From Candidatus Poribacteria bacterium (GTDB lineage: Bacteria; Poribacteria; WGA-4E; GCA-2687025), in NCBI GenBank assembly GCA_963665845.2, contig OY762492.1:3456001-3520000 (forward strand): a stretch of 64,000 nt of DNA, given 5' to 3'. Positions within the stretch are counted from its first letter, which is position 1, and every line of letters begins with the position of its first letter. This document shows positions 48,016 through 49,558 of this stretch, in pieces. Below the pieces are notes generated by a model. It had not been told where the DNA came from. It made no database searches and saw only the letters and a list, made by a program, of their open reading frames with translations. The translations under genes were made by a program, and so were the position numbers.

Positions 48016-48028
48016 TGTATGATGATCT

Positions 48029-48210
48029 TGCCCCTCGAGTCGATGCATACTTAAGGGGTAGCGCGGTGAGACTCCAGACCGTCTTAGGCGAGCTGCTTCG
48101 CAGCGGCGCCGTGCGGGAGTATCGAGAGCCGCGCAAAGAAGACAAGAAAGACCGGAGGCTCCGCACAGATACAGTGTTCTTGTTACAGAATACAAGTTGG
48201 GAGGCCGGTC
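48029..48210 (+). ncRNA. predicted IS110 bridge RNA
   Basis: 5' hairpin; loop closed by gcgcgg/ccgcgc with REP-matching segments; loop closed by gaccgg/ccggtc with segments matching the element's circle junction; ends approximate. Confidence 0.8.
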
Positions 48211-48244
48211 CTCCTTGTCCTTTTCTCCTGAAAGGAGAACGAAA

Positions 48245-49441
48245 ATGACCATACCACGCAACGACGCAAACAACAACAAAATCGCCGCCGGAATCGACGT
48301 GTCCAAAGACACGCTTGAAATTTCCATCAACGGCGGGGAAACCTCCACCATTAAAAACGCCGCGAACCCCATCAAGCGGTTCATCAAACGCCTCCTGACG
48401 ACCCACCCCAACATCAACATGGTCGTCTTTGAACCGACCGGCGGATACGAGCGGAAACTGGCGTCGCTGCTCGCCGAAGCAGAGATCCCTTACCACCGCT
48501 GCCATCCAAACTTTGCCCATAACTTCATCCGCTCCTACAGCGTCCGCGCCAAGACCGACGCGCTGGACGCCAAGATGCTCGCGCTGTATGGGCTGAGCCG
48601 CGATCTGAAACCGACGAAACCGATCGATCCGGTCGTGAAAAAGGCTCGCCGCTGGATGACGATACGCATGCAGCTGGTGAAAACGATCACTCAGTGGACC
48701 AATCGGAAGCATCTGCTGGACGGCGAGGCGACCAAGGATGCGACCGAAGAGATCATCCAGTCCCTGAAAGAGAGGCGCGACGCGGCGGAGCGGGAAGCTC
48801 TGGCATTGGTCAAGAAAGAGGCAGAGCTTCGCGAGAAGTTCAGCCTGTTGAAGAGCATTCCGGGCTTCGGGGTTCTCATTTCCGCGTATCTGGTTCTTTA
48901 TGTGCCGGAGTTGGGCAATCGGAGCGGCCGTCAGATCTGTTCCCTGCTTGGTTTGGCTCCTTGGGCGCACGAGAGCGGCAAGTCGACAGGTCGGCGCCGC
49001 ATTTGGGGCGGTCGGAGCGATGTTCGCGCGCTTCTGTATATGTCGGCGATGTCGGCGATTCGTTTCAACCCCGACATGAAGGCGTTTTACGAGCGTCTGA
49101 AGGAGAACGGCAAGCCTGGGAAGGCGGCTCTTGCGGCGGTGATGCGGAAGTTGGCGGTTCTTGCGAACGCGATTCTGAAGCGTGGAACGCCTTGGGTTCC
49201 TTTGGATGAGTTGCGTTCTTTGGCGCCATCGGAAGAGTCGGCGTCTTCCGATGAGCAGGATGAAACAGCGGCTGCGGCGCCATCGGAAGAGTCGGGGTCT
49301 TCCGATGCGTCGGTCGCGGCGCCGACCGGAACATCTGCGTCTTTGGATGAGGCTGACGGGGAGGCGCTGCCGGCGCCTGGAGAAGCGCCGGCAGCGGCGT
49401 CTTCGGATCCGCCGTCAAGCGACAGGACGCAAGGCAGATGA
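48245..49441 (+). CDS. IS110 family recombinase/transposase with acidic low-complexity tail
   Basis: GIDVSK, FEPTGGY, KTDALDA (DEDD), [25 protein letters not shown] upstream. Confidence 0.95.
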
Positions 49442-49558
49442 AAACCCTTTCCGAGAGACAGCTGCGGCGGCTCCTTCGGCTCTTGCCGAAAAATATCCGC
49501 CGCGGCGACTTTCGGGACAACAGAAAGTGCGAAATGGTTGACTTTGAACACAGATACT

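Follow-up and report, generated by a model that had tools for sequence, protein, structure and literature searches.

The best-described systems close to the element reported here are the IS110 family members IS621 and ISCro4 (IS622) (PMC11208160, PMC11208158, PMC13626964, bioRxiv 10.1101/2025.05.14.653916; PDB 8wt6, 9t56). They combine a recombinase with DEDD RuvC-like and Tnp serine domains, a left-end RNA with a 5' hairpin and two loops, AG core guides, handshake bases, a junction promoter and a REP-like target. In the IS621 bridge RNA, CCG-N precedes each left guide, and G-U precedes a right block of 9 nt that has AG at the core (Durrant supplements). Exchange in IS621 runs across positions 6-9, already with mismatches at 6 and 7, and the cut positions and the unligated bottom strand have been described (PMC11208158, PMC13626964). 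Durrant 2024 reported a low tolerance of mismatches and a strong preference for pairing both core strands; in the accessible part of that work only concordant core changes were tested. In the sections available to us, the 2026 structural paper (PMC13626964) treats the core as invariant, and the bridge-editor design rules of the IS622 paper ask for matching cores together with an unlike position 7. ISPpu10 and ISPpu9 of Pseudomonas putida (bioRxiv 10.64898/2026.03.19.712850; PMC12288879, each in its accessible part) also target REPs, and their cores are a duplicated dinucleotide (CT and AG), unlike that of the element described below.

The window, a stretch of 64,000 nucleotides from a Candidatus Poribacteria genome (contig OY762492.1), contains an intact element that its sequence places in the IS110 family and that appears to work like IS621 but departs from the matched core. 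All of the features listed for IS621 and ISCro4 recur in it, the RNA fold as a prediction and the junction promoter as a motif; in every copy, however, the target has TT where the donor has CT. Whole-genome BLAST without a junction filter found nine full copies (A, the copy in the window, B-G, I and J), a truncated copy H and an RNA-only remnant K. We consider it likely, with a probability of about 0.7, that a predicted bridge RNA in the left end guides the recombinase to join donor ACAGATA-CT-TGTAT to target nnCGTCA-TT-CCCGC despite the unlike first core base.

The element and its recombinase

The features of the window copy are as follows.

48016..49558, + strand: IS110 element, 1543 bp, IS621-like, intact (nine full copies of 1537-1552 bp)
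48007..48015, + strand: left target half, positions 1-9 (GCCGTCA and core TT), on the left side of the NTS/SRM-type repeat that the element splits; CGTCATT in 10/10 left junctions
48016..48020, + strand: right half of the donor, TGTAT (positions 10-14); copy J has TACAT and a guide changed to match
48018..48023, + strand: -10-like hexamer TATGAT; in the joined circle a 17-bp spacer separates it from the -35-like hexamer; putative promoter activity
48029..48060, + strand: predicted 5' stem-loop of the bridge RNA (folding)
48061..48134, + strand: predicted target-binding loop (folding and guide matches)
48078..48086, + strand: left target guide ACCGTCTT plus a purine; mismatched (U:T) at position 7 and fitting the TT core with its U at position 8; GTCAT in J and K
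48113..48121, + strand: right target guide GCGGG, core guide AG and handshake TA, complementary to donor 6-9 plus the right target; GCGGGAGTA in 11/11 RNA copies
48150..48210, + strand: predicted donor-binding loop (folding and guide matches)
48165..48172, + strand: left donor guide ACAGATAC (8/8 match)
48190..48198, + strand: right donor guide ATACAAG and handshake TT (guide match)
48223..48239, + strand: predicted hairpin over the ribosome-binding site (folding)
48245..49441, + strand: IS110 recombinase, 398 aa (domains, catalytic residues)
49538..49543, + strand: -35-like hexamer TTGACT in the right end (sequence motif)
49550..49558, + strand: left donor half ACAGATA and core CT, identical in 9/9 full copies
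49559..49577, + strand: repeat half to the right of the element; its right target is CCCGT, where most copies have CCCGC

Excision of 48016-49558 restores the repeat, giving ...GGCCGTCATT joined to CCCGTGTAAGCGGGAATC, as a sequence-only reading of this DNA had claimed, and every string which that reading named lies where it had been placed. End-to-end joining of the element gives ...ACAGATACT followed by TGTAT and brings together a TTGACT-17-TATGAT promoter motif at the circle junction. The element has a GH95 glycosidase gene on one side and an unnamed gene on the other. Its non-coding ends, 229 bp on the left, upstream of the gene, and 117 bp on the right, have the layout of the IS110 group and not of the IS1111 group. 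Sequence similar to the hairpin over the recombinase ribosome-binding site (48223-48239) occurs in other copies and in the orphan RNA. Elsewhere in the window an IS1-like transposase gene (51664-52398; zinc ribbon, HTH and a weak DDE_Tnp_IS1 match) lies beside degenerate repeat copies, and two genes contain periodic repeats, a long one with a period of 126 bp that appears WD40-like by eye (22154-26752) and one with a period of 123 bp (62343-63861).

The recombinase combines the Pfam domains PF01548 and PF02371, which correspond to the RuvC-like DEDD domain and the Tnp domain with its catalytic serine, and scores 186.9 bits against NF033542, the NCBIfam model of IS110 RNA-guided transposases (cut-off 140). 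The closest solved structures are those of ISCro4 (E 1.4e-29) and IS621 (E 8.9e-28). Five catalytic residues (D18, E63, D105, D108 and S244) align with those of IS621 and are kept in 147-150 of 150 homologues; the wedge residues are Y265, M266 and M269. G66 is the conserved counterpart of the IS621-type residue that reads T at donor position 9. Differences from IS621 include H87 in place of N84, the residue that reads the partner of C8 in IS621 (a candidate cause of the TT use, although 39 of the 150 homologues also have a histidine here), a proline in place of A61, a left strand of the target loop that is one base shorter, and a C-terminal tail of about 80 aa. This tail (window about 49200-49441) is of low complexity, acidic and alanine-rich with an internal repeat, and it occurs in diverged form in the nearest homologues too.

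A protein library clustered at 50% held just four close representatives (46-76% identity, one of them from the same genome), after which identity drops to about 40%. The related-locus search returned relatives of 23-34% identity only, one locus in genomes and five in metagenomes, and all plasmid relatives are below 60% identity. No close recombinase match was present in 40 related genomes, nor was one found with the sister-lineage protein as query (E 1e-60) in 150 genomes of the phylum.

The predicted bridge RNA

The left end had been described as foldable into a 5' hairpin and two loops. The hairpin and both outer stems do appear in the unconstrained fold (z -3.15 and -2.14), but the fold with open loops is not the one of minimum energy: at -60.7 against -72.8, about 12 kcal/mol are needed to keep the guides unpaired. 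The guide strings named earlier are in place, although IS621 geometry moves the start of the left target guide to 48078 and that of the left donor guide to 48165. With these starts, the left donor guide matches at 8/8 positions (48165), the right donor guide at 7/7 (48190) and the left target guide at 7/8 to the commonest target (48078) but only at 6/8 to the target of this copy, GCCGTCA-TT-CCCGT. The block of right target guide, core and handshake matches the post-exchange strand at 9/9 positions (48113). Pairing of the right target with one G:T had been proposed and holds, but this copy's own target adds a second G:T at position 14. Among 20,000 dinucleotide shuffles such matches were reached 15 times for the left donor, 97 times for the right donor, 710 times for the left target and 36 times for the right target, whereas all four guides together were matched in none (0/20,000). 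Compared to IS621, the left target guide has 8 nt, the right target guide 5 nt, and the right donor guide is unbulged.

The guides were compared among the RNA copies of the genome. The left target guide carries a U:T mismatch at position 7 in 9/11 copies and leaves position 9 unpaired, which speaks against the bridge reading in view of the mismatch sensitivity and core pairing reported by Durrant 2024. At position 8 it has U in 11/11 RNAs, where the left donor guide has C (U in two copies). The TA of the target-loop handshake pairs donor positions 6-7 in 11/11, while the second base of the donor-loop handshake is A, T or G; by count, the handshake yields a net gain of 0 to +2 pairs. A covariance model built from 10 RNA copies recovers the 11 known RNAs in the genome and found nothing convincing in seven family genomes or 14 other loci. 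The left-end DNA was found in 0/20 relatives and had no match in an Rfam search, and covariation in the stems was not above the control (score 0.079, with 216/500 shuffles as high).

Differences between copies bear on the function of the guides. In copy J the end TACAT and the guide ATGTAAG are altered together, a two-base compensation between donor end and donor guide. The guide of copy I, ATATAAG, specifies TATAT, yet its own end reads TGTAT; TATAT is the start of two 12-bp remnants, which fit the guide of copy I. At positions 1-3, copy F has the guide ACC and the target GTC, and copy J the guide AGA and the target ACC. These disagreements of the F, J and I guides with their own target or end indicate that the copies are mosaic or act in trans. 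The full copies are indeed a mosaic of pieces: A-G share 89-95% identity among themselves, I and J are 92% identical to each other but 64-68% to A-G, and four of the nine (A, C, D and E) have an unbroken recombinase frame. Truncated copy H (L033; C1:469929-470372) comprises the whole RNA and 72 codons and then, at a CT inside the gene, passes into the right target. The orphan RNA K (L041 about 1408-1650; C1:2788106-2788345) is bridge-like with guides that look intact, but its inner target stem is deleted; it lies directly after a host gene, without a recombinase gene or element ends, and was not found in G001, the genome of another species of the genus. According to the accessible parts of its descriptions, ISPpu9 has free-standing RNA modules and partial circles, whereas orphan RNA K has lost the element ends.

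Insertion sites, unlike cores and their register

The palindrome had been called common in the window, and 12 matches against none in 100 shuffles bear this out. Genome-wide there are 1005 empty GTCATTCCYGC sites. The repeat agrees with the NTS/SRM consensus given in the Ssn nuclease paper (PMC11893778), whose main text, as far as it was available, makes no mention of IS110. A 102-aa GIY-YIG gene (Pfam PF01541) lies between inward-facing repeat clusters, like ssnA (L049:1492-1800; C1 about 2298870-2299180). Shared with that system are thus the repeat consensus and a GIY-YIG gene flanked by repeats, here at the level of Pfam. T occupies position 8 in 802 of 818 repeat right halves, and the sequence before the repeat is GTCATT in 816 cases and GTCACT in none. 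On the opposite arm there are about 1,020 TT-CCCGC sites whose left side differs, and 0/10 insertions are located there, which indicates that the left guide sets the orientation. ACC at positions 1-3, as in the commonest guide, occurs at 5/10 occupied sites and at 107/1005 empty ones (Fisher p 0.0024, for copies that are not independent).

All 10 copies with a left junction read CGTCA-TT followed by TGTAT (TACAT in J), and the nine full copies end with ACAGATA-CT followed by CCCG or CCTG (9/9). There is hence a single insertion position and orientation in the repeat, without terminal processing, in 10/10 cases. The mapping of all copies, which the sequence-only reading had called for, revealed neither insertion at unrelated sites nor different ends, and the contrast it had drawn between target core TT and donor core CT holds in 9/9 full copies. 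Its broader claim, that a natural IS110 bridge system targets the repeat of its own genome, is backed by the protein, the 10/10 insertions, the sister genome and the compensation in copy J.

G001 has the element only as contig edges. Ten matches to the right-junction pattern were found there, nine of which are element ends at contig edges, and 11 to the left-junction pattern, five of them such ends; the remaining matches are four remnants and three unrelated sequences. Both patterns fixed TT and CT, so that agreement was possible but other cores were invisible. The orthologous spot in G001 was rejected as an empty site, as both its repeat cluster and the DNA downstream differ from those in the window. 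Public data comprised eight runs from four studies, all of them contigs, from which rare forms drop out. They contain related copies, including a contig of 1,398 nt, about 90% identical, from a run that bears the label sponge metagenome. Among the joints listed for these eight contig-only runs there was neither a circle junction nor an empty form of this site. In one RNA run, parts of the left end are covered by contigs, although contigs cannot show a transcript. The right-junction pattern had no match in viral contigs (0).

Both partners have T at core position 9, and the identical dinucleotide core of the IS621 model is absent. With a single T shared at the junctions, the cut can be drawn one base either way. 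The marks that precede the guides in the IS621 RNA are also present in this one, and they lead to target nnCGTCA-TT-CCCGC and donor ACAGATA-CT-TGTAT with T9 shared; the donor drawn in this way is identical to the IS621 donor at 11/14 positions. If the element follows the course of IS621, its ends would join into a circle and thereby form the junction promoter (Hiraizumi 2024, 2026). The top strands would be cut after T9 and exchanged, which would leave target TT at the left junction and donor CT at the right. The bottom strands would be cut between positions 5 and 6, turning positions 6-9 into heteroduplex with mismatches C/T at 6 and T/C at 8, which would be repaired from the ligated top strand. 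Because the IS621 cut geometry makes positions 6-9 heteroduplex anyway, the difference at position 8 would be easily absorbed, and repair templated by the top strand predicts TT on the left and CT on the right, matching 9/9 full copies. At position 8 both right guides keep a G that is contacted by the protein in IS621; it would pair with donor C8 and wobble with target T8, so that the swap may be roughly neutral at this position. Position 6 would be the sole source of a handshake bias towards insertion, through pairing of the target-loop A with donor T6 after the exchange, because position 7 is A in both partners. Partners that are equal at position 7 and unequal at 8 are the reverse of the IS622 design rule as given in the accessible part of that paper.

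Other readings of the junctions were weighed against this one. A crossover one base further left would give the target core AT, the donor core AC and a mismatch at position 9. With only one T shared, the junction letters permit it, the same RNA-DNA pairs can be drawn, and AT-core relatives use the same repeat family; but it would place C at a donor position that is T almost without exception and is recognised by the residue conserved as G66, and it would break the IS621-type donor alignment, the spacing of the donor-loop marks and the right target block. We regard it as very improbable. Just as little credit is due to the idea that insertion takes place only into rare CT-core repeats, or that the hairpin is picked by protein contact, with the left TT or the guide matches arising later through conversion to the repeat consensus or by chance. 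The repeat is abundant and the copies are mosaic, and ISPpu10 also uses a target stem-loop, according to the available part of its description, so that a structural contribution is possible. CT-core repeats in this context number 0, however, left junctions read TT right up to the element in 10/10 cases, and the guide has U at position 8 in 11/11 RNAs. The shuffle result for all four guides and the compensation in copy J also argue against this idea.

A staggered bridge, in which the right guide works in the TT register and the left guide one base to the left, in an AT-core register, is more plausible than these two but still unlikely. The target would then span 15 bp against 14 bp for the donor, the target bottom strand would be cut one base earlier than that of the donor, only unlike cores could be joined, and excision with bottom-strand repair would leave a footprint of donor bases 6-9 that is one base short. 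Three empty repeats (C1:630785+, 758334+ and 2683231-) do read nnnG-TACT-CC, with donor bases 6-9 and one base missing, and are candidate excision footprints. They continue as CC(C/G)GCG in three different repeat subtypes, and the unshifted form GT-TACT and the single-change intermediates GTCACT and GTATT number 0 each against 816 intact repeats. From the G48 equivalent to the inner stem the target loop has 10 nt, compared by eye to 11 nt in both IS621 loops and in the element's own donor loop. In addition, the J guide counted from the stem ends GTCAT like a 9-nt guide for an AT core, and natural AT-core IS110 elements target GTC-AT-TCCG and GTC-AT-TGCG repeats. On the other hand, there are three footprints only and none with the exact pattern in G001, in G, J and K the CCG-N mark speaks for the ordinary register, and an enrichment of G at the extra position is not clear (6/10 vs 346/1005, p 0.09). 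A deletion at the shared T, or the spread of one old variant by gene conversion, yields the same letters. Recombination in the ordinary register, with unlike TT and CT cores, remains the preferred reading.

Remnants, fusions and significance

Further junctions with element or donor sequence are present in the genome. Remnants of 12 bp, which run from the left end to an internal CT and then into the right target, occur twice (C1:3524954+ and 1919864-), and G001 has four of the same type (L052, L071, L074 and L078; one is 11 bp). At C1:3739047+ a fragment of an HNH gene ends in ACAGATA-CT and is joined to the right half of the repeat. HNH-domain matches to this fragment number at least 28 in the genome, a large paralogue family. 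At C1:523376+ the left half of the repeat is joined to TGTAT inside a gene fragment, by eye of a TolB-like repeat gene; three intact paralogues of this fragment read ATATAGA-TT-TGTAT, which places the break of the fusion at T9. Both host-gene fusions sit exactly at donor half-matches; their reciprocal junctions were not found in the genome. The fusions and remnants resemble products of IS110 elements from half-matches and partial circles (bioRxiv 2026.08.31.748434; 2026.08.14.744561, in their accessible parts). That the genome records footprints, partial circles and half-match fusions of a recombinase working in two registers is a tentative interpretation, which we doubt as much as the staggered bridge itself.

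Supplementary Data 2 of Durrant 2024 provides a comparison, for which 4/52 parts of the target and donor lists were compared by eye and the same index was taken as the same locus. In these parts, the donor core of pairs 123-131 is CT, whereas 5/9 of their targets have the core TT, unremarked there. Pairs 172-175 (AT x TT) and 182, 183, 186, 187 and 190 (AT x GT) also have unlike cores, and the targets of pairs 769-776 are GTCATTCCG-type repeats. The TT x CT element in these data also uses CT targets, whereas the element described here uses TT only; in the entries of these parts that target GTCATTCC, target and donor share the core AT, which lies one base to the left of the cut of this element. 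Its donor 14-mer was not found in Supplementary Data 2. A search of the accessible literature found no description of unlike cores for IS110; one match for 'non-identical core' concerned core genomes in the part available (PMC13640169). The unlike core is thus recurrent and not unique, as TT x CT is already present in the portion of the Durrant 2024 supplementary data compared. What is new, as read from the genome sequence, is the apparently exclusive TT x CT use with compensation within one genome, the candidate footprints, the 12-bp remnants and the two half-match gene fusions.

These observations suggest that matching crossover bases are likely no strict rule for these recombinases. According to the accessible part of a further report, unlike CT:GT cores have been used to stop two guides from cross-reacting (10.64898/2026.04.29.721476); TT-only targets combined with a CT donor suggest a lack of orthogonality between TT and CT. 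A further class of target sites may thus be reachable, and off-target searches should cover TT cores. The fixed outcome, TT on the left and CT on the right, provides natural support for repair templated by the top strand. If the short footprints are made by the enzyme, they would report the position of the bottom-strand cut, a step that is still argued over.
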